A stretch of 64,000 nt of DNA, from the NCBI GenBank assembly GCA_964426385.1, contig CAYRQF010000003.1, positions 22,938 to 86,937 of the forward strand. The letters are read 5' to 3'. The first letter of the stretch is position 1; every line of letters begins with the position of its first letter. The notes under the pieces were generated by a model. That model searched no databases. It saw only the letters and a program-made list of their open reading frames with translations, and was not told the origin of the DNA. Shown here in pieces: positions 6,221 through 61,417 of the stretch. The position numbers were made by a program, and so were the translations under genes. This DNA comes from an uncultured Candidatus Saccharibacteria bacterium. GTDB taxonomy: Bacteria; Patescibacteriota; Minisyncoccia; Phycocordibacterales; CSBR16-119.

Positions 6221-9200
6221 ATGAAATTGCAACGAGCATTTTTCTTGGTTATCGCATTAGTATTTCTAGTCGGCTTCACAGTTACTGTATCAGGACCGGG
6301 CGGTGCATCACAGAGAGCACAGGTGACTGGTGCTGTATCGAATCAATCTATCAGAGGCTACTCTCTGGTAAACGCAGACACTGATACGATAATCGGACCA
6401 CTCTCCGATGGTCAAACAATCGATCTCGCAGAGCTTGGCACGAATCATGTAAATATCGTTGCAGAGACATCTCCTTCTGTCGTCGGTAGTGTTGCGTTTC
6501 ATCTTGATGATCTTGCTCGTGTTGTCAAGAATAGCGCTCCATATGCTCTCGGCGGACACAACAACGCCGGCAATTTCTACGCGGCGAATCTCTCGGTCGG
6601 AGATCATACACTAAAGACTCAGGCATTTACTCTGGCCCGTGCTCGCGGACTGGGTAGTGCTGTAAGCGAGATTCGATTCAGCGTCGTCGGAGGATCGCCG
6701 AGATCGTCTGGTGGTCAAACTCAGGCTAGTTCTGATTCAACGACACCCATCTCTAACACACAGCAGACTCATTCGACTCCTGGCAATGTTGCGAATGTAA
6801 CAGGTGCTGAAGTCCAAGAAATCAAATCTTTCACTCTAATAAATGCTGACACCAACCAAGAGATAGTGGCGATAGAGAACGGTGCAGTTTTAGATATTCA
6901 GAATCTCGGTACCACGAATCTCACCATCAGGGCCAACGCTACTCCAACTAATGTCGGCTCAGTTAAGTTCTACCTTGATAGTGTGGCGGTGCGGACAGAC
7001 AATCTTTTTCCGTATACCAATGTCGCGAGTACAACAACTGATGATTATCGACCATGGTCATTTACTCCGGGACAAGAGTACTCAATAACAGCAATACCAT
7101 TTAGTCTCTCTCGCGCTCGCGGTGTAGAGGGTACACCGCTAACTGTTTCTTTCACCATCGGGCAAAATCCAGTCGGTGGGCATGAACCTGTAGTTGGACG
7201 ATCTATGGACCCTTCTGTTCCTGCTATGGGGTGTCTAACTGCTACGGTTACCAATGACCCAAATGGTGGCAATAACCCAGGCACCATAACCATCGATTGG
7301 CCAGATGTTTCTGGACATCCATACTATAAAGCTTGGAGAATTCAGAATGGACAAGTGGAAGTATCTACCGAAAATCAGGGTGGTGCCGTTACATATAACT
7401 CTATGACCCCTGGAACATGGACGATCAGAGTAGCTTTCCTTGAAGCGGGCGCACTACCAAACACAAGTGCAGACTGGGGACCAGAGTCTGAAATCAGTAA
7501 TCTCGTCATAAGTACTAGTATCCCAGGTCCTGTAACAACTACAACATGCGGGCAAGAGCCAGTCGAGTCTGCACAGCTCAAAGTGTTCCTTGGTGGAGCA
7601 TACAACTCCTCTACAGGACTTATGTCCACTGCACTTAATGATGCAAACGTTATACCTCTCACTGAACCTTACACGGGAGAAGGTTATCAGTTTACTAACG
7701 GCTCAGGCTCATCGATTTCTTCTGGCGTCCTCAACGCTACAGGAAATGACGCAATCGTTGATTGGGTTATCGTCGAACTACGAAATCAAAACAACAATCT
7801 AGATATAGTAAGTTCTCGCCCAGCACTACTACAAGCAGATGGAGAAGTCGTTGGTCTAAACGGCACTACTCCGATATTTGACTCTTTCTCTTCGGGCACA
7901 TACTACGTAGTCGTCCATCACCGAAACCACTTGGCTGTCATGACTGCGAATCCGGTCAACATCAGTAATTCTGTAGACTTGACCAACTCAACGCTCTGGG
8001 GAACCAATGCCGCCAAATTGGTCAGCGGAACAAAGGTTCTATGGCCAGGTGATGTTAATAATGATGGTCTCGTAAAATACACAGGCGGAAACAACGACAG
8101 AGATCCGATCCTCCAAGTCGTGGGCTCAAATACGCCAAATAATGTTGTTACAAACGCCTATGCAAAAGCTGACCTAAACATGGATAGCACTGTTAAGCAT
8201 ACTGGTACGAAGAACGACAGAGACATTATTTTCCAGTCGATAGGTTCAGTAGATCCAACAGTAGTGAATGTGGAACAATTACCTCAACCATCTAGTACCA
8301 CCATCACTTCTATACAGGTAGTAAATACACAGGGTGTGGTACAGCAGACACTTTCTGCTGGGCAGACTATCAACATAGGTACTCAAAATGGTGGCTACGG
8401 AACAAGCATTGCTCTCAAAGCCAACACTAGTACTAGTCCTGTACCAGGAAGTGTTAAATATACCCTCACGCGCGCAGGCAATACGCATGAAAATATAGAT
8501 AACGCTGCTCCATTCTCATCTCATGGTGATACAGGAGGAAACTATACAGCCTGGACCAGCCTACAGCCAGGCGCATATCATCTAACCGCTTTGCCATATG
8601 ATGGAGCTAATGCCACAGGAGCATCAGGTACGGGTGCAGACTTCGACTTCGTTGTCGTAAACAATGATACTGTCGCCCCTCTCGCGCCACAGAATGTATC
8701 AATCAATTACCGATCGGCAGATGAGATAAGACTCTCATGGAGTCCTTCAGTTGGTGCGACGAACTATCAGGTAGTAAGGACAGGTAATGGACAGACATTC
8801 CCACTTCAGTCTGGTACAACTTTTAACGACACCACTGGGCTAACAAGCAATGGAACATTCTCTTATGTGGTCACTGCCATTAACTCAAATGGTCAGGTGT
8901 CGCCTAACTCAACGTCTATCGATGCTCCGACTCTGTCACCAGCCTTCACAGCCGGTACACTGGTTGCTCCAAATGCCAACAATACCCAGGTTAGAGCACT
9001 GCCAGAGAATCCGACGCTTGTTGGAACTGTTAACACTACGAACAACGGATCTGTTGTTACCGGAACATCACCTTCAGGGCATGTTGTCTGGGTAAAGGGC
9101 GTTACCCCAGCTCCAGATGTCCGATATCTCCGAACCACATTTACCAGCCCTGCACTATCTGGTCCAGGCTGGGTAGATCAGACAAAGCTGATCACGTATG

Positions 9201-12200
9201 TTGCGCCGGCTGCACCACTGCCTCCAACTAACTTCACAGGCTCTGGCACATCAACCTCGAACATCAACCTCACATGGACAGATGTTGCTACAAATGAGAC
9301 AGGGTATGAGGTTCAGAGAGCGGCACTAACTGATACGAATTTTACTAGTCCGACAACGACCACTTACGGACCAAACTCTAACGCCACCTCGATATCTACC
9401 GGCCTCTCTGCGGGTACCGCATATCTATTCCGCATTAGAGCAGTTAGTTCGACAAGCGGACTCAATTCTGTGTGGGTTTACTCTGCCCCTGCTTCGATCT
9501 CTACGCAGGCTGCTCAGACAGCACCGAATGCACCAACTAACCTCACTGGTTCTGCTTCGTCGACATCACAAATAAATCTCTCATGGACAGATAATGCGAA
9601 TAATGAAACAGGCTTCACTCTTAATAGGGCTACAGCTCCTGATTTCAGTTCCGGATTTGTCACCACTAACGTGCCAGCAAACAGTCCGACAGCTCCAAGC
9701 ACGGTTAACCATCCTGTCACAGGGCTTGCTGCAGGACAGACATACTACTTCCAGGTTAAAGCGATAAATGGCACCGGAGATTCCGCTTGGGCAACTCCAA
9801 ACCCTCTTTCTGTGGCTACACAGAATGTTGTGGCCGGCACATGTAATCCTGGTACAGTTGCGCCAATGCTTCCACCGAACAACTCACCGGTTAATGACTT
9901 GTCTAGAACGAATGGTGCCAACAGATCTGTGCAGCTATCATCAGCTGTTACGGGTGCTAATCAGATAACGATATGTTGGGACACTGTTGCTCAGAGAACT
10001 ATAAGCGGCAGTATCTCTGTCTACAGGAAATCAGGTTACACTTCTACGAGCTGGGGTACAGCGATAGCTACTTTGGCTAATACAGAGACAAGTTATGTAG
10101 ACAATAGTGTTACCCAAGGCACTTATTACGAATACAAAGTATCTTTCTCACAGAGTTCAACTTCATCAGCAAGCGGTGTTAGCACTAACGGTACAGCCGC
10201 AGGATACATAGCTACTGGTATAAATGTTCCTGAGGAATCCAGCAGAGGTAAAATGGCCCTAGTTATAGACAACAGTATGGTAACCGGCACTAACGGAAGC
10301 GCTCCAACTGGAGGAGATTCAGCGCTTATGTCTAAAGTAAACACTCTAATAGATGACCTAAATGCTGACCGATGGACCGTCTATCCTATATACGTAGGAC
10401 GTGGTGATACCGTAGCAAGCGTCAAAGCGCTTATCGTTGCGCAGAATCCGGCCGCCATCTACTTGCTAGGACATGTTCCAGTAGATAAGACTCACACAAT
10501 GTCTCCTGACGGTCACGGAGATCAGATACCTTGGTCTTCAGACGCTTATTATTCCGTGTCAGGTACGTACGGAACAACTGTTGCCCCTGTTTATCAGATC
10601 GGCCGAGTCGATGCGTTCAAGATGGAGGTATTCGGCGCCGGTAATCCTTCTAGTGATGCTACCGCCGCTACAGCAGGAGAGAAAACTGTAATAGGAAATT
10701 ATCTGGACAAAGTACACAATTACAAGATTGGCTCCACTACTGTTCAGCAGAGAGCTATTATCAAGGACGCCCTTGATCACGCTTATTCCGGCTTCACTAG
10801 CGCACAAAATGCTACCGTTGGCGCTTGGTCAACATTCCCTTCAGTTGTTGGTTTGGCAAATACATATGTGACCAACGAGAGAGGAACTCTCTTGACTCCG
10901 TCTCTACAGGGCTCGAATGACACATACCTACTCATGCTTGCACAATCTGGTGGACAGTGTGACAGAGATAACGATTCAGCCACTGGAACATCTGCGGGAT
11001 TTGCGGCGATAAGCGGCGGAGCTGTGTTCAACATGGCCGGCGGCAGCCGTTTCGGAAGCTTCGATAACTGTATATCTTTCCGTGAAAATAACTTCTTAAA
11101 AGCGCTGCTGTTCGGTGGTAAAGGAATGGTTAGTCTCTATAGCTTAGATCATCACTGGTATCTCCACTCTCTGGCCATGGGACAGAATATTGGTTATGCG
11201 ACCAAGGTGTCCATGAATAATCACTCTACTCAGGTTTATACACCAGTCAGTTGGTATCAACAGCGAAATTACAACGCTTTTATGAGTCCACTCGGCGATC
11301 CATCTATTCGCGCCTCATACTTTACCATCCCGTCGACGTTTACTGCGAGCGGTACGGCAGGAAACCCTATAAACTTCTCATGGAGCAGTGTTTCAGGAGC
11401 AGAAGGCTACAATGTCTACAAGATTACTTCATCTGCTGTGACTAAACTTAACAGCTCGATGATAGCAAGTACGTCATACACAGGATCTGAAATATATACC
11501 TCAGGAGCCAAATACATGGTGACTGCGCTCGACCTTACGACCTCAGGAAGCGGTGGAACATATTATAGAGAATCCCTCGGAAAGATGACTCTCACAACAG
11601 GTGGAGGCGGAGGAGACTTGGCAGCTCCGACTACACCAGGAAGCTTCGCGGTGAGTGGAACAACTGCCTCAAGCGTAAATCTTACATGGACGGCCTCTAC
11701 AGGTAATCCAGTAGGAGAGGCGGTAACTTACAAGATCCTCCGAAGCAGTGCGACAAACGGCACATATACTCAGGTTGGAACCGATACTGCTTCACCTTAC
11801 TCCGACACGACTGTTACTGCAGGCAACACTTACTACTACAGGATTACAGCTTCTGATGCTGCAAGTAACACTTCACAGCCTGCACCCTCAGCGTCTACAG
11901 GCATCTCTGCTACAACTGTAGACAACCAAGCACCTTCTGCACCGGCAGGACTTATGTCGACAGCACAGACGACGGGAAGCATTACACTCACTTGGAACGC
12001 CTCCACGGGTAACCCTGTAGGCGAGACCATTAACTACAAGGTCTTCCGAAGTACGACAGCTAACGGAACATACACTCAGACAGGTAGCTCTACAACTAAT
12101 ACAACATTCACTGATTCAGGACTAACAGCGGGAACAACTTATTACTATAAAGTGTCTGCAACAGACGCTTCCAATAACTCTTCCGCTCAAAATCCTTCTT

Positions 12201-14989
12201 CGGGTTACGGTGCTGCGACAAGTGCTCAAGCGGACACTCAGCCACCAACCGTACCGACAGGTCTTGCTGTTACAGCAACTACAGCTTCAAGTATTTCGTT
12301 ATCTTGGAATGCTTCAACTGATGTTGGAGGAAGTATCGTACAAGGGTATCTCATTTATCGTAGCGCAACGAGCGGTGGTACATATGACACCATAGGAAGT
12401 TCTAGTGGTACTTCATATACTGATTCTGGTCTTGCCCCTAATACAACTTACTATTACAAGGTTACGGCAATTGATAACTCCCCTAACGGCAATCAGTCTG
12501 CTCAGACACAGTATGTTTCTGGTACAACTGCTGCTGTTACCGGAGGTGGCTCAGGACAGGTACTTGGTCTCATGGGTGTATACGCAGGACCAAACAACAG
12601 TGAGGACGTAACACCGGGAGCTAACCCAGCAGGTGTGTCAGACTACTACGTTGACTGCGTCGCTGGAAATGACAGTAATAATGGAACTTCAGCCGCTACT
12701 GCATGGAGAACACTAGAAAAATTCAACACTTCAGGCGCCGGCCAGATGCAACCAGGATCTAGAGCGTTCTTCAAGAGAGGATGTACGTTCTATAAAACAG
12801 ATGTATATCCGATGGGAATATATGATGGTGGAATCCTCAGGGTTTCTAACTCAGGAAATGCATCAAACTATGTAGAATATAGGGCCTACGGCACAGGAGC
12901 GGCTCCAGTATTCTCTGGCGCGGTACCTGTTACTGGCTGGACTCAACACCAGGGAAATATTTACAAGGCAAACATCGGAGCAAATAAGAACGTTCGATAC
13001 TTGTTTGCCAACAACTCTGGCCAGACACTCGCTCGCTTCCCAAACAAGAGTGCTGGTAATACAGTCTGGATGAAGACAGATCATATCACTAACCCTGGAG
13101 GAGTATCTCTCAATGTCGAAGACTCGTCTTCTACTGATGGAGCACTTCCAACCTCTACAGCAAATAACCTAGCTGGAGGTGAATATGCAGCTAGGTTTAT
13201 GAACTGGGCCTTCGTGGTTGCGCCGATTACAGCCCATTCAGGTCAGACCATTACCGTTTCATTCCAGGGTGGAATGAACCAGGTGCCATGCTACATACCA
13301 AACTGCTCTAACACCATTTATCCTGAAGCTGGCTGGGGATACTTCGTTCAGAACAAGCTATCCCTCCTAGACACCGCAGGTGAGTGGTACTACGACAATG
13401 CCTCTGGTCAACTCTACTTCTGGGCGCCAGGCGGAGTGAATCCGAGCACTATGACTGTAGAAGCGGCAGTTCACCGAAACGGTGTTCACATGCTCGGTGG
13501 TATCCATCATGTAAAGGTAAAGAACCTTGCGTTCGAGAAGTTCAACAAATTCAGTTACGGAAGTTCTGACAAGGGTGCGGCGGTGTTCATTCAAGACTGG
13601 GATGGATCGTCTGGAGTACTCAGTAACATCGTTGAGAATGTTGAGATCAAGAATACTCCTATCGGTGTTCGCGTCGAAGGTGTCGAATCAACAGGACCAT
13701 CAAACGGTAACAAAATACTCAATTCTTATATTCATGACATATTCGACATTGGAATGCTCTCATACGGTCTCGGCCACCTCTACCAGGGTAACGTGATTGA
13801 GAATATCGCTCTGGCCCCTGAGCTTGCCGCTGACACCGATGAGTGGAACCATATGTACGGCTTCGTCTCAACCGGTGGTAACGTTGACTTCATCGGCAAT
13901 ATAGTACGAAATATCGGTTACATCGGAGTTAACTATGTTCAGAACGGTGAAATCCGGAATAACTTAATCGAAAACATATCTCTAACTATTAACGATGGTT
14001 GTGGTATCTGCGCCGATGGAGCAGAGAATGATCTCCTCGTGAAGAGAAATGTTGTTAACCATGTGTACGGAAACATTGTTGGCCTACCTTCAACATTCGT
14101 TCATGCGACAGCGCTTGGCTCAGGTATATCAACAGGCGATAGGAATAGTATCGGTGGAATCTTCGAGGAGAATGTTGTTAACGATGCTGGAAACTCTGGT
14201 ATCACGTTCGACAACAATACCTTCTCGGCGAATATGCAGATGAGGAATAACACGATTTACACGAATCAGCCGGGTAACTCTAACGGTGCTAAGGGTATCT
14301 CAATGTATGATCAGTCTGTGGGCGTATATCACCCAGGAGAGAACAATGCCCAGTCACTCTATGACTTCGATTTGGGTCACAGTGTATACGGTAACAAGGT
14401 TTACACACTACATCAGAACAACAACAGTCTCTATGAGGCACGCGTTCTAACTTCTACAAGTGGTGGACATACAGACTTTGGAGATTATTGGGGCAATTAC
14501 TTCTTCCACCCATACTCTACTAACACAATCGTGAATTATCGACCAGCACCGTTGGTAACCACAGGAGACCTTATCTGGACTCTCACAAATGCACCAGTTT
14601 ATTCAACGGCAAGCACGAACACATCTTCCGGCACTGTGTCAACAGGAACAAAAGGTTATATCTCAGGTACTGAGTCAAACTACCGATGGTTCGTAACTTT
14701 CAACAACGGACAATCTGGCTGGATGAGGTCTTATGAAATCGCAATGGCAAAGAAGAACATCGCAGAATTCCAGCAGGTTTATAACCAGCCTCCATCCGGA
14801 CAGCCTCAGAACACACAGCGTGGAGTAGGGGATTCACTGCCGACGCTTTATGTCAACACAACTGGCTCTCCGATGTCCGCGAATATCGGTTCCGGTAAGT
14901 GCGGAAGTAATGGTCAGACACTCGCAAATCCTTACCCACTTAACACCTTTGCTGATGCGATTGTTCCAGAGATATGTAGCGAGCAATAA
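6221..14989 (+). CDS. giant secreted surface protein (2922 aa): N-terminal repeated beta-sandwich-like domains, dockerin-like Ca-binding repeat pair, at least 6 fibronectin-III domains, central Cys/His globular domain, C-terminal right-handed parallel beta-helix
   Basis: Signal peptide. FN3 signature xAPxNLxxxxxSxxxIxLxWT...NETGY repeated. DVNNDG...NDRD appears twice. NxxIxNN beta-helix rungs near the C-terminus. Confidence 0.9.
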   Translation: MKLQRAFFLVIALVFLVGFTVTVSGPGGASQRAQVTGAVSNQSIRGYSLVNADTDTIIGPLSDGQTIDLAELGTNHVNIVAETSPSVVGSVAFHLDDLARVVKNSAPYALGGHNNAGNFYAANLSVGDHTLKTQAFTLARARGLGSAVSEIRFSVVGGSPRSSGGQTQASSDSTTPISNTQQTHSTPGNVANVTGAEVQEIKSFTLINADTNQEIVAIENGAVLDIQNLGTTNLTIRANATPTNVGSVKFYLDSVAVRTDNLFPYTNVASTTTDDYRPWSFTPGQEYSITAIPFSLSRARGVEGTPLTVSFTIGQNPVGGHEPVVGRSMDPSVPAMGCLTATVTNDPNGGNNPGTITIDWPDVSGHPYYKAWRIQNGQVEVSTENQGGAVTYNSMTPGTWTIRVAFLEAGALPNTSADWGPESEISNLVISTSIPGPVTTTTCGQEPVESAQLKVFLGGAYNSSTGLMSTALNDANVIPLTEPYTGEGYQFTNGSGSSISSGVLNATGNDAIVDWVIVELRNQNNNLDIVSSRPALLQADGEVVGLNGTTPIFDSFSSGTYYVVVHHRNHLAVMTANPVNISNSVDLTNSTLWGTNAAKLVSGTKVLWPGDVNNDGLVKYTGGNNDRDPILQVVGSNTPNNVVTNAYAKADLNMDSTVKHTGTKNDRDIIFQSIGSVDPTVVNVEQLPQPSSTTITSIQVVNTQGVVQQTLSAGQTINIGTQNGGYGTSIALKANTSTSPVPGSVKYTLTRAGNTHENIDNAAPFSSHGDTGGNYTAWTSLQPGAYHLTALPYDGANATGASGTGADFDFVVVNNDTVAPLAPQNVSINYRSADEIRLSWSPSVGATNYQVVRTGNGQTFPLQSGTTFNDTTGLTSNGTFSYVVTAINSNGQVSPNSTSIDAPTLSPAFTAGTLVAPNANNTQVRALPENPTLVGTVNTTNNGSVVTGTSPSGHVVWVKGVTPAPDVRYLRTTFTSPALSGPGWVDQTKLITYVAPAAPLPPTNFTGSGTSTSNINLTWTDVATNETGYEVQRAALTDTNFTSPTTTTYGPNSNATSISTGLSAGTAYLFRIRAVSSTSGLNSVWVYSAPASISTQAAQTAPNAPTNLTGSASSTSQINLSWTDNANNETGFTLNRATAPDFSSGFVTTNVPANSPTAPSTVNHPVTGLAAGQTYYFQVKAINGTGDSAWATPNPLSVATQNVVAGTCNPGTVAPMLPPNNSPVNDLSRTNGANRSVQLSSAVTGANQITICWDTVAQRTISGSISVYRKSGYTSTSWGTAIATLANTETSYVDNSVTQGTYYEYKVSFSQSSTSSASGVSTNGTAAGYIATGINVPEESSRGKMALVIDNSMVTGTNGSAPTGGDSALMSKVNTLIDDLNADRWTVYPIYVGRGDTVASVKALIVAQNPAAIYLLGHVPVDKTHTMSPDGHGDQIPWSSDAYYSVSGTYGTTVAPVYQIGRVDAFKMEVFGAGNPSSDATAATAGEKTVIGNYLDKVHNYKIGSTTVQQRAIIKDALDHAYSGFTSAQNATVGAWSTFPSVVGLANTYVTNERGTLLTPSLQGSNDTYLLMLAQSGGQCDRDNDSATGTSAGFAAISGGAVFNMAGGSRFGSFDNCISFRENNFLKALLFGGKGMVSLYSLDHHWYLHSLAMGQNIGYATKVSMNNHSTQVYTPVSWYQQRNYNAFMSPLGDPSIRASYFTIPSTFTASGTAGNPINFSWSSVSGAEGYNVYKITSSAVTKLNSSMIASTSYTGSEIYTSGAKYMVTALDLTTSGSGGTYYRESLGKMTLTTGGGGGDLAAPTTPGSFAVSGTTASSVNLTWTASTGNPVGEAVTYKILRSSATNGTYTQVGTDTASPYSDTTVTAGNTYYYRITASDAASNTSQPAPSASTGISATTVDNQAPSAPAGLMSTAQTTGSITLTWNASTGNPVGETINYKVFRSTTANGTYTQTGSSTTNTTFTDSGLTAGTTYYYKVSATDASNNSSAQNPSSGYGAATSAQADTQPPTVPTGLAVTATTASSISLSWNASTDVGGSIVQGYLIYRSATSGGTYDTIGSSSGTSYTDSGLAPNTTYYYKVTAIDNSPNGNQSAQTQYVSGTTAAVTGGGSGQVLGLMGVYAGPNNSEDVTPGANPAGVSDYYVDCVAGNDSNNGTSAATAWRTLEKFNTSGAGQMQPGSRAFFKRGCTFYKTDVYPMGIYDGGILRVSNSGNASNYVEYRAYGTGAAPVFSGAVPVTGWTQHQGNIYKANIGANKNVRYLFANNSGQTLARFPNKSAGNTVWMKTDHITNPGGVSLNVEDSSSTDGALPTSTANNLAGGEYAARFMNWAFVVAPITAHSGQTITVSFQGGMNQVPCYIPNCSNTIYPEAGWGYFVQNKLSLLDTAGEWYYDNASGQLYFWAPGGVNPSTMTVEAAVHRNGVHMLGGIHHVKVKNLAFEKFNKFSYGSSDKGAAVFIQDWDGSSGVLSNIVENVEIKNTPIGVRVEGVESTGPSNGNKILNSYIHDIFDIGMLSYGLGHLYQGNVIENIALAPELAADTDEWNHMYGFVSTGGNVDFIGNIVRNIGYIGVNYVQNGEIRNNLIENISLTINDGCGICADGAENDLLVKRNVVNHVYGNIVGLPSTFVHATALGSGISTGDRNSIGGIFEENVVNDAGNSGITFDNNTFSANMQMRNNTIYTNQPGNSNGAKGISMYDQSVGVYHPGENNAQSLYDFDLGHSVYGNKVYTLHQNNNSLYEARVLTSTSGGHTDFGDYWGNYFFHPYSTNTIVNYRPAPLVTTGDLIWTLTNAPVYSTASTNTSSGTVSTGTKGYISGTESNYRWFVTFNNGQSGWMRSYEIAMAKKNIAEFQQVYNQPPSGQPQNTQRGVGDSLPTLYVNTTGSPMSANIGSGKCGSNGQTLANPYPLNTFADAIVPEICSEQ

Positions 14990-18947: not shown

Positions 18948-19643
18948 ATGCAAGAAATTACGATATTTACAGATGGTAGTTCTCTCGGTAATCCGGGTCC
19001 TGGTGGATGGGGGACGATAATTTGGAATAAGGGCAAGAAAGAGGTGGTAGAACTCGGCGGACACCATCCGAAAACGACGAACAACAGGATGGAGATGACG
19101 GCTGCCATTGAGGCTTTGGGCTACCTCGAAAGTCTCAGTCAGGAGGAGCTCGAGATTACCGTCTTCACCGATTCACAGTATCTCATAAACGGTATAACCA
19201 AATGGGTCTATGGCTGGGAAGAGTCTGGTTGGGTCACGAAAAAGAAGGAGTCGGTACTCAACAAGGACCTCTGGCAGATATTGGTCACCAAGACTCGTAA
19301 TCTCGAGATAGAGTGGAAATACGTCGAGGGTCACGCCGGCATCGCAGGTAACGACAGAGTAGATGCTATCGCGACCGAATACGCCGCTGGTAGAAGCCCA
19401 GCGCTATTCAAAGGGCGTTTCGAGGGGTATGACATAGACCTCAAAAACCTGACGCCATTATTCGCTTCGAAGGGTAAGAAAGATGGTAAGGTTTACTCAT
19501 ATCTAAGCCAAGTAGATGGTGAGATTCAAACCCACAAGACTTGGGCAGAGTGCGAGGCGAGAGTTAAAGGCAAAAAGGCCAAATTCAAAAAAACATTTTC
19601 CAAGTCCGACGAAGAGGAGATCATAAAAGAGTGGCTCGGATAG
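18948..19643 (+). CDS. rnhA: ribonuclease HI with a C-terminal hybrid-binding-like extension
   Basis: RNase H fold with DGS...E...D...HAG...D catalytic residues. C-terminal ~80 aa resemble a hybrid-binding (cauli_VI-like) domain pattern Y..G...W.EC...V.G....F. Confidence 0.9.
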   Translation: MQEITIFTDGSSLGNPGPGGWGTIIWNKGKKEVVELGGHHPKTTNNRMEMTAAIEALGYLESLSQEELEITVFTDSQYLINGITKWVYGWEESGWVTKKKESVLNKDLWQILVTKTRNLEIEWKYVEGHAGIAGNDRVDAIATEYAAGRSPALFKGRFEGYDIDLKNLTPLFASKGKKDGKVYSYLSQVDGEIQTHKTWAECEARVKGKKAKFKKTFSKSDEEEIIKEWLG

Positions 19644-19671
19644 GGTATTAAAAGCCTAGCTTTTATCTGCT

Positions 19672-19789
19672 TGTCCCGTTAGAGATGCTTCGTTAAAATT
19701 TTAAGAGTCGGAGAACTATAAGATGTTCATTTATTATTTGCAAAATAATAATTTAATACGCAAACCGAAGGTTTGCTATCTCTAACGGG
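19672..19789. repeat. ~118-bp intergenic element with 12-bp perfect terminal inverted repeats (CCCGTTAGAGAT / ATCTCTAACGGG), copy 1; right end abuts the comEC ATG
   Basis: Direct sequence comparison with copy 2 at 45305-45424. Confidence 0.7.
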
Positions 19790-21289
19790 ATGAAAAGTAG
19801 AATATTTCTTTCTATAGTTTTCGGGTTCTTGGTGGGTGTACTCCTAAGTTCGTTTTATACGTTCGGCCTCGCTATCGTCGGGCTAGTGGCACTAATAGGC
19901 CTAACTTTTCTCATCATCAGCATATTTGAGCATAACCTTCGCACGACATTTATTATTATTTCAATATTTCTTCTTTGCTCCTCAGCTGGGATACTCCGGT
20001 TTCATGCCAAGGATGCAGGTGAACCGAAGAATACACTGGATAATTTCGTAAACGAAAGCGTAGTTCTCGAGGGCGTGATTCTGAGTGAAGTCGAGAGACG
20101 TGAGGGAAGTCAGCGTGTCGTACTATCGGCTAATAATATAACTCTACGTGACGTCGTATATCCGATAAATCAAAAGATTCTAGTTTCGACAGAATTATTC
20201 CCAGAGTTTTCTTATGGTGAGAGAGTGTCAGTGAGCGGAAAGCTAGAGAAGCCCGAGAATTTCATAACTGATGTCGGTAAAGAGTTCGACTATGTGAACT
20301 ATCTAAAAAGAGAAAGTATCTATTACATCACTTCATTTGCAGAGGTAGAATTTGAAAGTGATGGCCATGGTAGCCGACTCAAGACAAGCATTCTGTCGAT
20401 CAAGAAAAAGTTCCTCAGCTCGATCGAGCGCGCCGTACCGGCTCCAGAATCTGCCCTCCTTTCCGGACTATTGCTCGGAGTGAAGTCCTCACTCGGAGAC
20501 CGGTTACAACAGGATTTCGTCAATACCGGGTTGGTACATATCATTGTTCTCTCAGGATACAATGTCACGATTATTGCTGAGGCGCTTATCAAGATGCTAT
20601 CGTTCGCCTCTATATCTGCCGGCATATATTTTGGCTCGCTCGCGATCATCCTGTTCGCTATCATGACTGGTGCCGGAGCCACAATCATCCGTGCCAGTAT
20701 CATGGCGATACTCGCACTCGTCGCGAGAGCTACAGGGAGAAATTATGATATAACTCGTGCACTACTTATCGCTGGCGTCGTGATGATCATCCAGAATCCA
20801 TATATCCTGGTTTTCGATATATCATTTCAGTTGTCGTTCCTCGCTACGCTCGGGCTCATATATGTTTCACCGATATTTCAGAAATGGTTTCATTTTCTTC
20901 CTGAAAGGTTCGGTATCAGAGAAGTCGCCGGGGCGACCGTCGGAGTGCAGGCTTTTGTTCTGCCTTTTATCCTCTACAAGATGGGCAACCTTTCCCTCAT
21001 AGCCCCGATTACAAATGTACTAGTTTTACCCTTTATTCCGGTGACGATGCTTCTCGGATTCCTCGCCGGATCAGTATCTTTTATCCTGCCAGTATTGGGA
21101 TTACCATTCGCCTGGGCCACATATTTATTGCTACATGGAGAGATCTGGATCGTAGAGACGTTCTCACGGATACCGTTCGGGAGTATTGAGATTATGCGTT
21201 TTCCGTTAGTGCTCGTTATTATTTTCTACGCCGTTATAACCTGGCTTCTGTGTAGATATTATAGGAAAATAGAAAAGCGCATTGTATGA
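19790..21289 (+). CDS. comEC: ComEC/Rec2 competence membrane channel (DUF4131 + ComEC transmembrane domains)
   Basis: Competence domain motif GLVHIIVLSGYNV. Polytopic membrane protein. Confidence 0.85.
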   Translation: MKSRIFLSIVFGFLVGVLLSSFYTFGLAIVGLVALIGLTFLIISIFEHNLRTTFIIISIFLLCSSAGILRFHAKDAGEPKNTLDNFVNESVVLEGVILSEVERREGSQRVVLSANNITLRDVVYPINQKILVSTELFPEFSYGERVSVSGKLEKPENFITDVGKEFDYVNYLKRESIYYITSFAEVEFESDGHGSRLKTSILSIKKKFLSSIERAVPAPESALLSGLLLGVKSSLGDRLQQDFVNTGLVHIIVLSGYNVTIIAEALIKMLSFASISAGIYFGSLAIILFAIMTGAGATIIRASIMAILALVARATGRNYDITRALLIAGVVMIIQNPYILVFDISFQLSFLATLGLIYVSPIFQKWFHFLPERFGIREVAGATVGVQAFVLPFILYKMGNLSLIAPITNVLVLPFIPVTMLLGFLAGSVSFILPVLGLPFAWATYLLLHGEIWIVETFSRIPFGSIEIMRFPLVLVIIFYAVITWLLCRYYRKIEKRIV

Positions 21290-32867: not shown

Positions 32868-32963
32868 AGTGGCTAGCTTATAGCTTTTAGAAATCAAAAA
32901 TCCCCGTGAGGGGATTTTTGATTGGTGTCCCATAAGCTAAAAGCAATCAGCTAGAAGCTACTT
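32868..32963. repeat. inverted pair of the short AGCTAKAAGCTAAAAGC repeat family flanking the fusA terminator
   Basis: Left arm ctagcttatagcttttag (reverse orientation) and right arm ataagctaaaagcaatcagctagaagcta bracket the hairpin at 32896-32919. Confidence 0.7.
32896..32919. terminator. stem-loop terminator aaaaatccccgtgaggggattttt
   Basis: Perfect hairpin with A and T runs on both sides, so bidirectional. Confidence 0.65.
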
Positions 32964-33248
32964 TGTGGCGAAATAGCTCATAGCGATGCCGAATATGCAC
33001 ATGGCTCCTATAACAGGTCCTAGCACCCAGACGTTTGACGGTGTGATGGCAACAACTAGAGCGGTCATGATGACTGCCGCCGTACCAACGCTCTTGGATA
33101 TGGATATCAAATGAAATTCGTCTACAGGTGGTCGTTTGGCGACGACAACTTTGTCTTGGAGAGGCTTTGAACCAAAACCTTTACGAACCTTCTTCTTTGA
33201 GGAAGATTTTTTCTTTGGTTTAATTTGTAATTCTATTTCGTTAGCCAT
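32958..33248 (-). CDS. small basic membrane protein (hypothetical)
   Basis: Lys-rich N-terminus and two C-terminal TM helices. Start chosen at MANEIE; the ORF track extends to 33314. Confidence 0.45.
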   Translation of the reverse strand: MANEIELQIKPKKKSSSKKKVRKGFGSKPLQDKVVVAKRPPVDEFHLISISKSVGTAAVIMTALVVAITPSNVWVLGPVIGAMCIFGIAMSYFATK

Positions 33249-37792: not shown

Positions 37793-37905
37793 AGGCTCCG
37801 GAAATCGGGGCTTTTTCAACTCCTCGAAAACGCAAGCGCCGGCTTTTGTCTAAACGACAAAACCGGTTACGTTCTCGGACTTTCAAAAGCCCCGATTTCC
37901 TTCGT
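37793..37905. repeat. nested long inverted repeat / stem-loop
   Basis: Outer 16-bp stem GGAAATCGGGGCTTTT / AAAAGCCCCGATTTCC. Inner imperfect stem ccggcttttgtc...gacaaaaccgg. Confidence 0.6.
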
Positions 37906-39628: not shown

Positions 39629-39691
39629 ATATTTCTTATCATAGTGTCAATCATAATTTTTGCCAAATATTCTAGTATAATTGGGTTACTT

Positions 39692-40369
39692 ATGGCTATA
39701 TCAAAAGAGATCGAAATCAAGTGCCTCCTCGGCGAGGAAGCTAACGCTAACGCATTTCGTGAGAAAGTTATTGCTAAATATCCTGACGCGAAAGTGTTGC
39801 CGAAGACTAGCCAGCTCAATCATTATTTTATTAATGGAGATTTTAAATTGCTCCAAGAAAAGATCACACCATTTTTAAATGACGAGCAGAATAAAACACT
39901 CGCAGAAATAATTGAGAAGGGAAATAATTTCTCACTCCGTACTCGTTCAGTCGACGGCAGGATTCTGCTCGTCGTGAAGGCTTCTCTCGGAGCTGACACC
40001 AGCGCTAACGGCGTCTCAAGGATGGAGTTCGAAGAATCGGTTAACATGACTCTCGCCGAACTCGACAAGCTTCTCGAAGATGTAGGATTTAAATATCAGG
40101 CCAAGTGGTCTCGCGAGCGCGTCGAGTATGTCCTCCCAAATATGAATATTACTCTCGACAAGAATGCCGGTTACGGATACCTGACAGAGTTCGAGACGGT
40201 GATAGGGGACGATGCCGATGTCGAGGCGACTCGCGCGACTCTCATGCAGGAGATAGAGTCATTCGGGCTCGAGGAACTTCCGCAGGAGCGTATAGAGCGG
40301 ATGTTTGCATATTATAACGAGCACTGGCCCGAGTATTATGGGACGGAGAAGACTTTTACTATTAAATAA
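39692..40369 (+). CDS. CYTH-domain (triphosphate tunnel metalloenzyme) protein
   Basis: EIEIKCL N-terminal CYTH signature. The ORF-track start is a GTG at 39644; the internal Met at 39692 is preferred. The start offset is uncertain by 1 nt. Confidence 0.65.
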   Translation: MAISKEIEIKCLLGEEANANAFREKVIAKYPDAKVLPKTSQLNHYFINGDFKLLQEKITPFLNDEQNKTLAEIIEKGNNFSLRTRSVDGRILLVVKASLGADTSANGVSRMEFEESVNMTLAELDKLLEDVGFKYQAKWSRERVEYVLPNMNITLDKNAGYGYLTEFETVIGDDADVEATRATLMQEIESFGLEELPQERIERMFAYYNEHWPEYYGTEKTFTIK

Positions 40370-44937: not shown

Positions 44938-45303
44938 ATGGAAATAATATATTTGCTCGGACGCATACTTTTGGGAGGGTACTTCATCTACAACGGCTAC
45001 AATCATTTCGCGAACTTGGACAATCTCACTGGCTACGCCAAGTCTAAAAAAGTCCCCATGGCCAAAGAGGGTGTTGTCGTGACAGGTCTGATGATGATCA
45101 TCGGTGGAGCGACTATCCTCACTGGACTCAGTATGACTATCGGTCTATGGATACTAGTAGCATTCCTCATCGTTACGAGTTTCATGATGCATCAGTTCTG
45201 GAAGATGACTGACCCGATGGCACGTATGGGCGAGGAGATCAACTTTACTAAAAATATCGCACTTGCTGGAGCACTCCTCCTCATCCTTGCGATGAAAATG
45301 TAA
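44938..45303 (+). CDS. DoxX-family small membrane protein
   Basis: LGRILLGGYFIYNGYNHF DoxX pattern. The ORF-track start at 44905 may be the real start. Confidence 0.65.
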   Translation: MEIIYLLGRILLGGYFIYNGYNHFANLDNLTGYAKSKKVPMAKEGVVVTGLMMIIGGATILTGLSMTIGLWILVAFLIVTSFMMHQFWKMTDPMARMGEEINFTKNIALAGALLLILAMKM

Positions 45304-45304
45304 T

Positions 45305-45424
45305 TTATCCCGTTAGAGATGTTTTTGTTTAAAGATATTTCAGAGGGTCAATAATTACTGAAAGTTATTTTACTAGAGGAATTAACCAAGATACGCATAT
45401 TAATAATTTGCTATCTCTAATGGG
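45305..45424. repeat. ~118-bp element with terminal inverted repeats CCCGTTAGAGAT / ATCTCTAATGGG, copy 2; right end abuts the ATG of the PCD gene
   Basis: Same termini and shared internal blocks (aataatt...atacgca...tttgct) as copy 1 at 19672-19789. Confidence 0.7.
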
Positions 45425-45748
45425 ATGGATCTAGCTCAGAAAAAATGCATTCCGTGTGAGGTGGGCGGTATGCCTCTCTCGGCAGAGAGATTGGAAACGC
45501 TTAGACCTCACGTACCTCTATGGGAGATAGAAGGGAATAAGTCTATTTCTCGTGAATTTGAATTCAAAGACTTTGTTGAAAACATGGCTTTTGTGAATAG
45601 GGTAGCGGAACTTGCCGAATCCGAAGGTCATCATCCGGATATGAATATCCATGATTGGAATAAGCTCACGATCAAGCTTAGTACTCACGCTATCGGGGGA
45701 CTGTCAGAGAATGACTTTATTTTGGCTTCAAAAATCGATACTCTGTAG
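45425..45748 (+). CDS. pterin-4a-carbinolamine dehydratase (PCD/DCoH)
   Basis: EGHHPD signature motif. Confidence 0.85.
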   Translation: MDLAQKKCIPCEVGGMPLSAERLETLRPHVPLWEIEGNKSISREFEFKDFVENMAFVNRVAELAESEGHHPDMNIHDWNKLTIKLSTHAIGGLSENDFILASKIDTL

Positions 45749-50963: not shown

Positions 50964-53900
50964 ATGGATAAGGATACATCTACTCCGAAGAAGTCCGACG
51001 CCGCTCTCAAGGAAGAGGCGGTACTTAAATTCTGGGCGGATAATGGTATTTTCGAGAAAAGCTTGGCCAAGGATTCACCAAAAGGCGAGTTCGTTTTCTT
51101 CGAGGGTCCGCCAACGGCGAACGCCAAGCCAGCACTTCACCACCTAGAAGCCCGCGCCTTCAAAGACGTTATCCCTCGTTACAAGACCATGCAGGGCTTC
51201 CATGTCCGTCGCCAGGGAGGCTGGGACACTCACGGACTTCCTGTAGAGCTCCAGATCGAGAAGAAGCTCGGACTCAACTCGAAGAAAGCTATCGAGGAGT
51301 ATGGTATCGAGAAATTTAACCGTGAATGTCGGGAGAGCGTTTTCCAGTACATTAAAGACTGGGAAGACTTCACCGACCGTATCGGATACTGGGTGGACAA
51401 AAAGAACGCGTACTTCACATTCGACAATTCCTACATCGAGTCTGTCTGGAATGTCATGGCCAAGGTAAACGAGCGGGGACTACTCTACAAAGACTACCGT
51501 ATCGTGCCATGGTGTTCACGTTGCGGAACGCCACTCGCGTCACATGAGCTCGCACAGGGCTACGAAGATGTAAAAGATCTTTCGATATTCGTAAAATTCA
51601 AAGTAGTAGGCGCCACGAATACATATCTGCTCGCTTGGACGACGACGCCTTGGACTCTCCCCGGCAATGTCGCGTTGGCTGTTGGAGAAAAGATTGATTA
51701 TGTGAAAGTGAAAATCGGCGAAGAACTTCTGATTCTTGCCAAAACTCGGCTTGAGGTTTTAACCGAAAGTTACGAAATAGTAGAAGAAATAAAAGGTTCA
51801 GACCTGGTAGGGCTTTCATACGAACCACTATATCCATTCATCGCCAATTCACTAGAAGCTAAAAGCGATAAGCTAGAAGCTAGTTTTAAAGTATATTCTG
51901 CAGACTTCGTCACGACCGAGGATGGAACAGGTATCGTTCACATCGCACCTATGTATGGCCAGGACGACTTCGAGCTTGGGACCAAGATCGGGCTTCCGAA
52001 AGAACATGTAGTTGGAGTTGATGGTAAATTCCTCCCAGACACCGGTTTTTTCTCTGGAAGATTCGCTATGGAGAAAGATGAGAACGGCAAACCGACACTC
52101 GCTGTTGATGTCATAAACGACCTTACTACACGGGGGCTATTCTTTGGGAAGAAAAATTACGAACACACGTATCCACATTGTTGGCGATGTAAAACTCCGC
52201 TCATATATTACGCACGCGATTCTTGGTACATCCGCATGTCGGAGCTTCGTGATGAGCTGGTTAGAGAAAATGAAAGCATCAACTGGGAACCATCTCATAT
52301 AAAAGAGGGTCGCTTCGGCGAATGGCTACGTGAAATCAAAGACTGGGCAATATCCCGTGAGCGTTACTGGGGTACACCGCTCCCAGTCTGGGTAGCCGAA
52401 GACGGAGAGAAGTGGGTTGTGGGAAGCGTCGACGAACTCCGCAAGCATACCAAGCAATCTATAACTAAGATTATTTTTGTAAGACACGGACAGTCCGATG
52501 CAAATGTTGCACTTGTTTCTTCTAGTGTTCGTGACGCCCACCCACTAACGGAGCTTGGTCAAAAGCAGGCCAGGGATACCGCTGAGAAACTCCAGAGTCA
52601 TGACATTGACGTCGTTTATTGTTCGCCGATTCTACGTGCGAGACAAACAGCAGAGGCTTATCTGGAGTTGGCTGGAAAAGAAATGATGTTAGATGATCGT
52701 CTCGCTGAGATTGGTAGTGGTAGTTGGGAGGAGAAGACCCAACATGACCCGAGTATAAAGGCAGAGCGTGATGCTTATAAAGCTATGTCGCCAGATGAGA
52801 GGTTCGTGTTTAAACGCGGAAGTACTGGCGAGAGTTGGTCTGACTTACAAACTCGGGTAAAAGATTTTTTAGATGAAGTGCTCGCGAAGCATGCTGGCAA
52901 GACTATTGTTTGTTTTGCCCATCAGGGGACTGACGAGATAGGAATAAAACTGCTAAGAAGTTTGGATAACAAATATGCCGCAGAAAATCTCTTTCATGAG
53001 ATTGAGAATGGGGAAGTATTTCCTTTGTATATTGATGACAGAACTCAGAAGGAGTTCGATCTCCATCGTCCATTTATTGATGACGTAGTTCTAGAAAAGG
53101 ATGGTAAAGAATTCCGCCGAGTCAAAGAAGTCATGGATGTCTGGTTCGACTCTGGCGCCATGCCGTTCGCTCAACACCACTATCCGTTCGAGAACAAAGA
53201 GTACGTTGATGGCCCGGGCTATCCGGCAGACTTCATCTCCGAAGCCGTCGACCAAACTCGTGGTTGGTTCTATACGCTTCATGCCGTGGGAGTGCTTATG
53301 GGCAAGGGCCGTGCATACAACAATTGTATCTGTCTCGGGCACATCCTCGACGACAAGGGCAAGAAGATGAGCAAATCTATCGGTAACATCGTGAACCCTT
53401 GGGAGATGATGGACAAATACGGCGTAGATACTCTACGTCTCTGGATGTACTCGGTGAACCAGCCGGGAGACTCGAAAAACTTCGACGAGAAAACTGTGGC
53501 GGAGCTCCGTAATAAAATATTTAACCTACTTTATAACGTCATTGCATTCTACGAGCTTTATCGCGACAAATCACTAGAAGCTAAAAGCGATAAACTAGAA
53601 GCTAGTTCTAACGTTCTGGATATCTGGATACTAGAACGCCTCGCCGAGCTCTCGAATACCATGACGACGGGTCTAGATAGTTACAAACTGATGGAGCCGG
53701 TTCGAGCTATGCGTGAATTTATCGATGAACTTTCCACGTGGTATGTTCGTCGTTCGCGTGATCGCCTGAAGGACGGTGATCAAGATGCAAAACGTACTCT
53801 ATATATCGTACTGAAGAATATGGCCCGTTTCCTGGCTCCATTTGCTCCTTTTGCCGCCGAGGATATTTGGCAGACTTTACGTACGGACGCTGACCCATTG

Positions 53901-54368
53901 AGTGTGCACCTCGCAAACTGGCCCGACCAGAAGCCGACTGACCCGAAAATCTCCGAGGATATGCAGTCTGTCCGTGAGCTTGTTACTCTAGGTCTCGAGC
54001 TCCGTCAGAAGAGTGGAGTTAAGGTCAAACAACCTCTCGCAAGCTTTACTGTAACCAAGGAGCTAGCAGTCGAATACCAAGAGCTTCTAAAAGATGAGCT
54101 CAACGTTAAAGAGATTGCCGTCGGCGAAGCTGTTGGTTTAAACACGGACATCACACCAGAGCTCAAGAGGGAGGGAGACTTCCGAGAATTCCTGCGAAAC
54201 GTTCAGGGTCTTCGTAAAGACGCAGAACTTTCTCCGAACGACATGGTTACTTTGATTGCCCCAGAATCCTCTAAAGAGGTAATCATCGGTTTTGAAGGTG
54301 AGCTCAAGAAAGTTGCCGGGATAAAAGAAATAAAATTCGAAGGAGAGGAAATTAGGATAGAAAAATAA
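50964..54368 (+). CDS. ileS: isoleucyl-tRNA synthetase with an inserted histidine-phosphatase (PGAM-like) domain and two in-frame SLEAKSDKLEAS repeat insertions
   Basis: PHCWRCKTPLIYY, KMSKS, WFDSGAMP and DIWILERL motifs. Insert ~52465-53050 carries RHGQSDAN, LTELGQKQA, SPILRARQTA and AHQGT motifs. Confidence 0.95.
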   Translation: MDKDTSTPKKSDAALKEEAVLKFWADNGIFEKSLAKDSPKGEFVFFEGPPTANAKPALHHLEARAFKDVIPRYKTMQGFHVRRQGGWDTHGLPVELQIEKKLGLNSKKAIEEYGIEKFNRECRESVFQYIKDWEDFTDRIGYWVDKKNAYFTFDNSYIESVWNVMAKVNERGLLYKDYRIVPWCSRCGTPLASHELAQGYEDVKDLSIFVKFKVVGATNTYLLAWTTTPWTLPGNVALAVGEKIDYVKVKIGEELLILAKTRLEVLTESYEIVEEIKGSDLVGLSYEPLYPFIANSLEAKSDKLEASFKVYSADFVTTEDGTGIVHIAPMYGQDDFELGTKIGLPKEHVVGVDGKFLPDTGFFSGRFAMEKDENGKPTLAVDVINDLTTRGLFFGKKNYEHTYPHCWRCKTPLIYYARDSWYIRMSELRDELVRENESINWEPSHIKEGRFGEWLREIKDWAISRERYWGTPLPVWVAEDGEKWVVGSVDELRKHTKQSITKIIFVRHGQSDANVALVSSSVRDAHPLTELGQKQARDTAEKLQSHDIDVVYCSPILRARQTAEAYLELAGKEMMLDDRLAEIGSGSWEEKTQHDPSIKAERDAYKAMSPDERFVFKRGSTGESWSDLQTRVKDFLDEVLAKHAGKTIVCFAHQGTDEIGIKLLRSLDNKYAAENLFHEIENGEVFPLYIDDRTQKEFDLHRPFIDDVVLEKDGKEFRRVKEVMDVWFDSGAMPFAQHHYPFENKEYVDGPGYPADFISEAVDQTRGWFYTLHAVGVLMGKGRAYNNCICLGHILDDKGKKMSKSIGNIVNPWEMMDKYGVDTLRLWMYSVNQPGDSKNFDEKTVAELRNKIFNLLYNVIAFYELYRDKSLEAKSDKLEASSNVLDIWILERLAELSNTMTTGLDSYKLMEPVRAMREFIDELSTWYVRRSRDRLKDGDQDAKRTLYIVLKNMARFLAPFAPFAAEDIWQTLRTDADPLSVHLANWPDQKPTDPKISEDMQSVRELVTLGLELRQKSGVKVKQPLASFTVTKELAVEYQELLKDELNVKEIAVGEAVGLNTDITPELKREGDFREFLRNVQGLRKDAELSPNDMVTLIAPESSKEVIIGFEGELKKVAGIKEIKFEGEEIRIEK
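51849..51885 (+). repeat. 36-bp repeat cactagaagctaaaagcgataagctagaagctag, in-frame within the ileS editing-domain region
   Basis: Near-identical copy at 53571-53606; related copies at 61387-61417 and 32868-32963. Confidence 0.8.
53571..53606 (+). repeat. 36-bp repeat copy, in-frame within the ileS anticodon-binding region (1 nt different from copy 1)
   Basis: tcactagaagctaaaagcgataaactagaagctagt. Confidence 0.8.
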
Positions 54369-61405: not shown

Positions 61406-61417
61406 CAGCTATAAGCT
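61387..61417 (+). repeat. short-repeat copy ctagaagctaaaagctaacagctataagct spanning the metG stop and ending at the tatD ATG
   Basis: Matches the AGCTAKAAGCTAAAAGC-N4-AGCTAKAAGCT family. Confidence 0.7.

Follow-up and report, generated by a model that had tools for sequence, protein, structure and literature searches.

What is the short non-coding segment that lies between rnhA and comEC in the genome of an uncultured Candidatus Saccharibacteria bacterium, and why does it end exactly where the comEC reading frame begins? The question is raised by a 64,000-nucleotide stretch of contig CAYRQF010000003.1, the whole of which we refer to as the window, in which one segment bounded by inverted repeats abuts the comEC ATG and a related segment abuts the start codon of a pterin-4a-carbinolamine dehydratase gene. 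We suggest, with a probability of about two in three, that both belong to a family of non-coding, non-autonomous elements of 100-130 bp that resemble MITEs (miniature transposable elements bounded by inverted repeats) and insert at start codons, a proposal that includes the insertion and expression steps set out below.

Two copies of one element in the window

A sequence-only reading of this locus had reported a perfect 12-bp inverted repeat whose right arm directly precedes the comEC ATG, and this repeat is indeed present. The left arm of copy 1, CCCGTTAGAGAT, occupies positions 19675-19686 and its perfect reverse complement, ATCTCTAACGGG, positions 19778-19789 (all features given here are on the + strand); the arms are 91 nt apart, and the ATG at 19790 follows directly. 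The element that had been delimited as 118 bp from position 19672 is real, its start having been placed 3 nt too far to the left; its length is 115 bp. Between the arms lie an AT-rich variable core (19687-19757), the dinucleotide AC (19758-19759), directly 5′ of a sub-terminal hairpin that we call P2 (GCAAACC GAA GGTTTGC, 19760-19776), and an unpaired T (19777) that links P2 to the right arm, which itself holds a TAA 4 nt 5′ of the ATG. The strand just 5′ of the left arm reads CTGCTTGT. The perfect inverted repeat extends to 13 bp when T19674 and A19790 are included, and with G.U pairs it reaches TTGT/ATGA: the left flank TTGT (19671-19674) pairs with 19790-19793 as U-A, G.U, U.G and U-A and lengthens the terminal helix into the comEC start. 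The gene itself (19790-21289; Pfam DUF4131 and Competence) has its first codon abutting the element.

Copy 2 had been placed at 45305-45424. A copy with the same termini does end there, at the ATG (45425) of the dehydratase gene (45425-45748); it starts at 45309, and its right arm carries one change. Its left arm CCCGTTAGAGAT (45309-45320), found by reading the sequence and by the covariance model described below, is followed by a variable core (45321-45394) ending in the conserved AC (45393-45394), by P2 (GCATATT AAT AATTTGC, 45395-45411) with one T.T mismatch, and by the T and right arm ATCTCTAATGGG (45412-45424), in which the single departure from the perfect arm gives a G.U pair on the + strand. 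The orthologous copy L207 has GCAAATT in P2 and hence a perfect stem. The left flank ATTTAT (45303-45308) matches the right flank ATGGAT at four of six positions and pairs with it along its full length when G.U pairs are allowed; the doxX TAA ends at 45303. The statement that each element is the only sequence between its flanking genes comes close: copy 1 begins 31 nt after the stop (19643) of rnhA (ORF 18948-19643, RNase H), and copy 2 lies 5 nt after the DoxX gene stop.

A single perfect 12-bp inverted repeat with a spacing of 60-130 nt was found in 14 of 100 simulated windows (mean 0.18). One such pair alone is unremarkable; what is remarkable is to find one 12-mer three times in exact form and a fourth time with a single mismatch. 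When a covariance model built from copies in other genomes was run on the window, it matched at these two sites only (E = 2e-16 and 1e-14), both on the + strand, with scores of 86.7 and 79.1 bits against 52 and 49 bits on the reverse strand. With two copies among about 58 genes, the termini are not part of a promoter motif shared by most genes.

A family of elements with a shared plan

Further copies, for which a genome-wide search had been proposed, are plentiful. A pattern scan with one genome per species, in which the two arms had to lie 77-107 nt apart, returned at least 119 genome stretches with the same arms; the family counts given here come from the matches listed. By record title these comprise about 69 Patescibacteria (Saccharibacteria, Paceibacterota, Nomurabacteria, Wolfebacteria and others), 14 Omnitrophota, 9 Planctomycetota, 4 Ratteibacteria, 3 Elusimicrobia, 1 Clostridia, 1 Ignavibacteria and 18 unclassified records. 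Several genomes contribute three to five contigs to these matches, and some 8-kb stretches hold three or four copies. Searches of viral contigs, phage records and plasmid records gave nothing beyond AT-rich chance matches, and a search for tRNA and tmRNA genes found none. A full-text literature search with the arm sequences produced no relevant match, and in the literature on MITEs in candidate phyla and on insertion at start codons we found no description of the element.

The copies were oriented by their internal asymmetry before the shared plan was derived. Across the family the element is 101-131 bp long, has no coding capacity, and reads, from 5′ to 3′, a flanking 6-mer RTNNAY, the left arm CCCGTTAGAGAT, the core, AC, P2, T, the right arm ATCTCTAACGGG and a flanking RTNNAN. 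The core is AT-rich, about 55-70 nt long and little conserved. Among 99 copies the A and the C of the junction dinucleotide are conserved in 84% and 82%, and the T is kept in 77. P2, whose 7-bp stem may have any sequence, is 15-30 nt long and usually takes the form GG-N5, a loop of 3-6 nt, and N5-CC. The only part common to the reading frames that cross the element is the arm-encoded MxPVRD...YL; they are otherwise unrelated, and an encoded peptide was rejected.

The covariation that had been asked for is found in P2 and in the inner positions of the arms. In 77 copies all 7 of 7 base pairs of P2 change on both sides, with 93% of cells paired; for the structure as a whole the paired share is 97%, and it falls to 35-45% once the partner columns are shifted. 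The outer 9 bp of the arms (CCCGTTAGA / TCTAACGGG) are invariant and the inner 3-4 bp covary: diverged copies recovered with the covariance model carry the complementary inner arms GAAAT/ATTTC, GAAGC/GCTTC, GAGAC/GTCTC and GATAGTGTT/AACACTATC, with the outer CCCGTTAGA fixed. Pairing of the arms runs 1 bp further into the flanks in 97% of copies and 2 bp further in 69%.

Reduced and composite forms were also encountered. Miniature versions consist of 45 nt of arms and P2 only (L082, 3627-3671), or of 80 nt that lack P2 and have the covaried arms GAAAT/ATTTC (L161, 2887-2966; L175, 2867-2946). On contig NVSU01000006.1 there are arrays of three and of two different members (L004, 5899-6286; L108, 1447-1565) with ATGAAT between the members; these arrays include a sub-family with the arms CCCGTAGTAGAAAA / TTTTCACTACGGG, and the order of two shared elements differs between them.

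Evidence for movement

One indication that the element moves is its presence or absence at otherwise equivalent sites. The comEC site is occupied in two relatives (L203 and L204; ComEC 97% and 88% identical) and empty in two others (L205 and L206; 87% and 72% identical), where the rnhA-comEC gap is 23 and 20 nt; likewise, the dehydratase site is occupied in L207-L209 (dehydratase 82% identical) and empty in L210 and L211 (81% and 82% identical), where the genes are 7 and 1 nt apart. If one genome per sample is assumed, the two sites show reciprocal patterns: one sample has the comEC copy only and another the dehydratase copy only. Near-identical copies also occur at different loci: a Wolfebacteria contig has two copies, 98% identical, that are placed 3.3 kb apart before different genes, and each adjoins a second, different element, in an order that is reversed between the two places. 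An element upstream of the gene was present in none of 80 distant ComEC loci, which, together with the two close orthologues that lack it, led us to reject a comEC-specific regulator. The earlier preference for a mobile element over a gene-specific regulatory RNA is supported by the copies before unrelated genes, by presence and absence, by near-identical copies elsewhere, and by flanking duplications.

About two thirds of the copies carry a repeat of the gene's first five bases (RTGNA) beyond the opposite end of the element. Of 124 copies, 78 have the same middle dinucleotide in both flanking 6-mers and only 9 have reverse-complementary ones, and identity peaks at positions 2-5. Within one sub-family of one genome the repeats are site-specific, ATGGA..ATGGA at one locus and ATGAA..ATGAA at the other (L013 and L065), each matching its own gene, and this is how target duplications behave. 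Tandem elements are spaced by exactly 6 nt (L103, L004, L108 and L110), which is the outcome to expect when every insertion restores its target. A staggered-cut transposase agrees with the site-specific flanking repeats better than a recombination step or a step catalysed by an HUH-type enzyme.

Constraint on resident copies

If these were dead insertions, they should decay evenly; they do not. Between the window and its orthologues, the arms together with AC, P2 and T show 0 of 46 differences at the comEC site (L204) and 4 of 46 at the dehydratase site (L207), and at the former neither the left arm nor P2 has changed at all. Against the same orthologues the core shows 19 of 69 (28%) and 21 of 70 (30%) differences, close to the 40% and 35% by which the adjacent genes diverge at their third codon positions. 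The termini and the hairpin, it follows, do something where they sit, and the arms and P2 are, judging from these comparisons, under purifying selection in place.

Of 114 oriented copies, 82 have a gene start no more than 45 nt from the P2-side arm, for the most part at offset 0; the offset is almost always 0 in Patescibacteria and 5-20 nt in Omnitrophota-type hosts, sometimes with a Shine-Dalgarno sequence in between. The P2 end is directed towards the gene in 39 copies and away from it in 8; this bias, like the open frame described below, suggests an effect on the gene. The adjoining genes are diverse and mostly of the housekeeping type, among them those for aminoacyl-tRNA synthetases, RRF, ribosomal protein S8, EF-G-like GTPases, SMC and ABC transporters.

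Proposed insertion and expression steps

We propose that a putative trans-acting enzyme recognises the 13-14-bp ends and inserts the element at RTNNA(Y) sites, which it would cut with a stagger of roughly 5 bp. Where genomes are compact, the surviving insertions would be only those that regenerate an intact start codon. The comEC orthologues use the same ATG irrespective of whether the element is present.

How a gene with such an insertion at its first codon might stay expressed is suggested, at lower confidence, by the expression context of the host. In the window genome, Shine-Dalgarno sites precede only 2 of 49 genes, and TAnnnT boxes, often in the form TGnTAnAAT, start 12-13 nt 5′ of many start codons (e.g., at 33374, 47097, 54913 and 57492). 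We take this box position to be the architecture of leaderless transcripts, and it suggests that such transcripts are widespread in this genome. In the 55 family copies with a duplicated start codon, a TAnnnT peak is also found upstream of its left (distal) copy, which implies that the native promoter now fires into the element. There are 22 copies whose right-arm TAA, situated 4 nt before the real ATG, is in frame with the duplicated start codon, and in 9 of them the frame is open from that codon up to the TAA; none of 30 copies reads through in the other two frames. The pattern looks like the product of selection for translating the whole element and then re-initiating. At the RNA level, the left flanks of both window copies can pair with the start codon if G.U pairs are allowed (UUGU/AUGA and AUUUAU/AUGGAU), which would give a terminal helix of 16-18 bp that includes the AUG.

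From these observations we tentatively derive the following sequence of events, the model of expression that we favour. The inserted element would be transcribed from an upstream promoter or as part of an operon, and its ends would pair in the RNA to form a helix of 14-18 bp that takes in the first bases of the start codon. Translation from the upstream gene, or from the 'decoy' duplicated start codon of a leaderless gene, would open this helix and end near the real start, and the downstream gene would in this way stay expressed. Should expression come to depend on the element, this would explain the unchanged arms and hairpin beside a drifting core.

A more far-reaching version can also be formulated. 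It describes a cross-phylum family specialised for first codons, including those of leaderless genes, whose effect is neutralised at the level of RNA or translation: the end helix joins the old and the new start codon, expression is restored by translation from upstream or by precise cleavage at the right boundary, and the gene then depends on the arms and the hairpin. We regard this version as doubtful. If it were true, the termini would be recognised by a widely conserved factor and not by a transposase alone.

In a sub-family of Omnitrophota-type hosts a CTTGY left flank recurs, often after GGAGG. The left flanks of L011, L019, L053, L072, L088 and L089 have a conserved CTTGC directly next to the left arm and, 3-5 nt ahead of it, a GGAGG-like motif, and TTG-CCC-CGT-TAG would there constitute a three-codon frame ending inside the arm. 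The CTTGY flank may reflect a target preference, a -35-like hexamer (TTGYCC), or the start of such a three-codon frame.

A number of observations weigh against the insertion proposal and its expression steps. Both window copies are atypical of the family: the flanking target-site duplications that had been suggested as a check occur in about two thirds of family members and are absent at both window copies when these are compared with empty sites. Both window sites also lie between adjacent genes (1-23 nt apart when empty) and not at the head of a transcription unit. At the comEC site the empty sequence is TTCTTG directly followed by ATGGGC, and the filled one is GCTTG, a T, the element and ATGGGA, the CTTG of the left flank already abutting the ATG in the relative without the element; at the dehydratase site the empty sequence is GTAAC or ATTTGGT directly followed by ATGGAC, and the filled one is GTAATTTAT, the element and ATGGAT. 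The reciprocal pattern of presence and absence needs loss, recurrent gain or recombination between strains, in addition to the assumption of one genome per sample. The 8-kb stretches around the 119 listed copies show no enrichment of any transposase or recombinase; there, an all-against-all clustering of 853 neighbouring ORFs revealed no protein family in more than 8 of 119 loci, and a search of 1.3 Mb for an autonomous parent found no arm pair more than 400 bp apart and no longer element with the same ends. The 39:8 orientation bias and the purifying selection on resident copies are unexpected for a purely selfish insertion and point to a function. Most upstream reading frames stop early in the core. 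The excess of G.U over A.C combinations in P2 (22 versus 10) is only about 2:1, and the apparent G.U excess in the flanks is confounded by start-codon composition. Finally, in a survey of 1.4 million bacterial MITEs clustered at 95% identity, 98% of the clusters were genus-specific and none spanned phyla (PMC11602168); measured against this survey and its clustering threshold, identical termini across phyla are not normal for MITEs.

Alternative explanations

The main alternative for expression is a promoter borne by the element at its right boundary. The element would then be a mobile, outward-firing promoter cassette whose P2-side end starts transcription at the first base after the element, so that the mRNA would be leaderless in Patescibacteria and would have a short leader with a Shine-Dalgarno site in Omnitrophota-type hosts. 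Such a cassette would sit well in a host with -10 boxes 12-13 nt before its start codons and almost no Shine-Dalgarno sites (the 2 of 49 genes mentioned above), and it would account for gene starts at offset 0 or 5-20 nt, for the 39:8 preference of the P2 side for the gene, and for the conservation in place of the right-hand module. The T and the right arm together give TATCTC at positions -13 to -8 from the ATG, preceded in the window sub-family by TGC in the manner of an extended -10 element, and in 122 of 123 copies the element is followed directly by a purine. There is also precedent, since Correia elements have been reported to create promoters at their ends (PMC2649163). Nevertheless, TATCTC lacks the T at the last position of a -10 hexamer, and the sub-families with covaried arms, which read TGTCTC or TGCTTC at this place and lose the essential A, argue against the idea. 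P2, being 15-30 nt long, allows no fixed -35 spacing; neither window copy yielded such a site in a promoter scan; the idea does not explain why the left arm is conserved just as strictly; and native -10 boxes persist 5′ of the left repeat. The sequence-only reading had the element carrying its own promoter and translation start, and this is not supported: the ATG belongs to the gene and is there at empty sites too, and the only sigma-70-like match in copy 1, a weak one to consensus, has its -10 in the core (TAAAAT, 19694-19699) and a -35 (TTGTCC, 19671-19676) that spans the left flank and the arm. We consider a promoter cassette unlikely, though it could hold alongside the insertion of a MITE-like element at start codons.

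The same reading had offered a conserved regulatory RNA structure as its second possibility, and this part was not simply wrong, for the sub-terminal hairpin covaries strongly and the arms and hairpin appear to be selected in place. Taken on its own, this explanation would make the element a structured cis-acting RNA, in a 5′ leader or between cistrons, that controls translation by sequestering the start codon, its spread being incidental. The predicted fold of copy 1 (-39.4 kcal/mol) has z = -7.2, and a z of -3.1 was also obtained; the terminal helix takes in the first 2-4 nt of the start codon, in the window copies by way of G.U pairs that exist on the sense strand only; and the polarity relative to the gene is consistent. 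Several features are difficult to reconcile with an origin as a regulatory RNA. The outer arms are invariant and do not covary, as is the case for DNA ends recognised by a protein, and the core is unconstrained; the downstream genes are unrelated, and close orthologues manage without the element, with gaps of 1-23 nt; the flanking duplications and tandem arrays point to insertion as DNA. No Rfam family matched the window at gathering thresholds, and at E values up to 10 there were only chance-level matches. In our view, a regulatory RNA that spread incidentally is improbable.

The tandem arrangements invite a different interpretation, in which the unit is a site-specific recombination cassette with the site ATCTCTAACGGG-RTNNAY-CCCGTTAGAGAT, a 12-6-12 core like that of lox or dif, and either small circles enter RTNNAY pseudo-sites or the segment inverts between its arms (an inverton). 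The 6-nt spacing in L103, L004, L108 and L110 does create perfect 12-6-12 palindromes, the 6-mers conform to a palindromic consensus, RTNNAY, a degenerate second arm is present in some flanks, the order of elements differs between two arrays of one genome, and the core is oriented away from the gene in 8 of 47 copies. Furthermore, the arm segments GTTAGAG / CTCTAAC bear what we take to be a resemblance to integron core sites. The GTT... / ...AAC order is, however, the reverse of that in attC, and the neighbours are housekeeping genes and not cassettes. No integrase or recombinase is found near any copy in the 8-kb stretches of the 119 listed copies, and no difference in orientation was seen among same-strain or orthologous copies; the spacers are direct and not inverted repeats, which would block inversion, and they vary by site within one sub-family, like target duplications. 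Recombination of this kind accordingly receives little credence from us.

Least probable of all is a single-stranded-DNA hairpin element moved by an HUH-type enzyme (REPIN/RAYT- or IS200/IS605-like) through hairpins on the lagging-strand template, for which one may cite two inverted conserved 12-mers about 90 nt apart that together can make up a single long hairpin of the REPIN type, a sub-terminal hairpin of conserved structure with, after it, a conserved tail of 13 nt up to the element boundary, a polarity that follows gene direction, mostly one strand in these genomes, and the two window insertions without target duplication, one of them directly 3′ of CTTG, a target of IS91-type elements, but which is at odds with the site-specific flanking duplication of most copies, as HUH transposition makes none, with true terminal inverted repeats and no GTAG-type REP motif, and with loci that, where examined, hold no RAYT or TnpA gene, REP sequences moreover being species-specific, unlike these termini.

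Relationship to known bacterial elements

MITE-like insertion at start codons is the explanation that we prefer, and the family differs from known bacterial MITEs in its cross-phylum termini, its exact placement at start codons, its structure-conserved sub-terminal hairpin and the apparent purifying selection in place. By analogy, the element would work most like the Correia elements (CREE) and also resembles REPINs; it does not belong to the former group and probably not to the latter. Correia elements insert with duplication of TA. Like the family described here, they are about 100-150 bp long, non-coding, have inverted-repeat ends and many copies that often lie just 5′ of genes, vary in presence among strains, and have inverted repeats that can pair in transcripts. 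They are confined to one genus, in contrast to the cross-phylum termini seen here, and the present elements have 12-14-bp arms, a duplication of about 5 bp (RTNNA), a covarying sub-terminal hairpin and insertion at start codons. In Neisseria, the host of CREE, the repeats are 26 bp long, and RNase III binding as well as effects on transcription and RNA processing have been reported (PMC2649163). Membership in this group was rejected, as termini, duplication and hosts all differ.

REPINs and REP-BIMEs share two inverted short conserved motifs, a variable spacer, a hairpin of about 100 nt, and an extragenic, non-autonomous and apparently selected existence. REPINs make no target duplication, are species-specific and need a single-copy RAYT, whereas duplications flank most copies of the present family and no RAYT is found in the loci examined. 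A palindromic element derived from IS200/IS605 was also rejected: such elements have sub-terminal hairpins at both ends on one strand, with neither terminal inverted repeats nor a duplication, and the present family has one hairpin only, true inverted termini, and duplications in most copies.

Integron attC sites have conserved inverted ends with GTTRRR / YYYAAC-like cores, a variable centre, a structure that matters more than the sequence, and an unpaired base next to the helix. The element shares these core and structural features and the size (57-141 bp) of attC sites; it differs from them in the reversed core order (GTT... at the 5′ end, against 5′-RYYYAAC ... GTTRRRY-3′ in attC), the perfect 12-bp arms, the location 5′ of housekeeping genes instead of 3′ of cassette ORFs, and the flanking duplications. 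Given the core order, this location, and the lack of a shared integrase in the loci examined, an attC identity was dismissed. Invertons, finally, are likewise short segments between inverted repeats directly 5′ of a gene, and both orientations of the present element occur across loci. Here, though, there is no orientation polymorphism at a single locus, no nearby recombinase, and direct-repeat flanks, and the genes are of the housekeeping and not the surface or phase-variable type; since same-strain contigs are identical, orthologous copies have the same orientation and no recombinase was found, all as judged on assembled contigs, this identity was rejected as well.

Implications and further observations in the window

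Small mobile repeats of bacteria are normally confined to a genus. Identical ends of 9-12 bp across phyla imply that the elements have spread horizontally very widely among ultra-small groundwater bacteria, that a protein which mobilises or binds them has a conserved specificity, or that they serve the host. The elements sit at the start codons of essential genes in genomes without Shine-Dalgarno sites and with leaderless-type promoters, they duplicate the start codon, and their arms and hairpin are kept in place; with these features they amount to a tractable natural experiment on the start of translation in poorly understood bacteria, and they bear on the way in which streamlined genomes tolerate insertions. 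In practical terms they are a useful marker, as they break assemblies and shift apparent gene starts.

Other repeats were noted in the window. A perfect 12-bp inverted repeat with 70-nt spacing (39881-39892 / 39962-39973) lies within the ORF 39644-40369 and is likely due to chance. The sole other strong local intergenic inverted repeat (37800-37828 / 37872-37900) has arms of 29 nt, 16 bp of which are perfect, separated by 43 nt, and is located in a 218-nt gap before the gene at 37986. A repeat family of four members of the form CTAGAAGCTAAAAGC..AGCTAGAAGCTA is present at 32920-32970, 51842-51892, 53564-53614 and 61378-61428; two of these copies lie within a 1134-aa ORF (50964-54368), and one lies just 5′ of the ATG at 61418. 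Positions 6221-14989 are taken up by a single ORF of 2922 aa.

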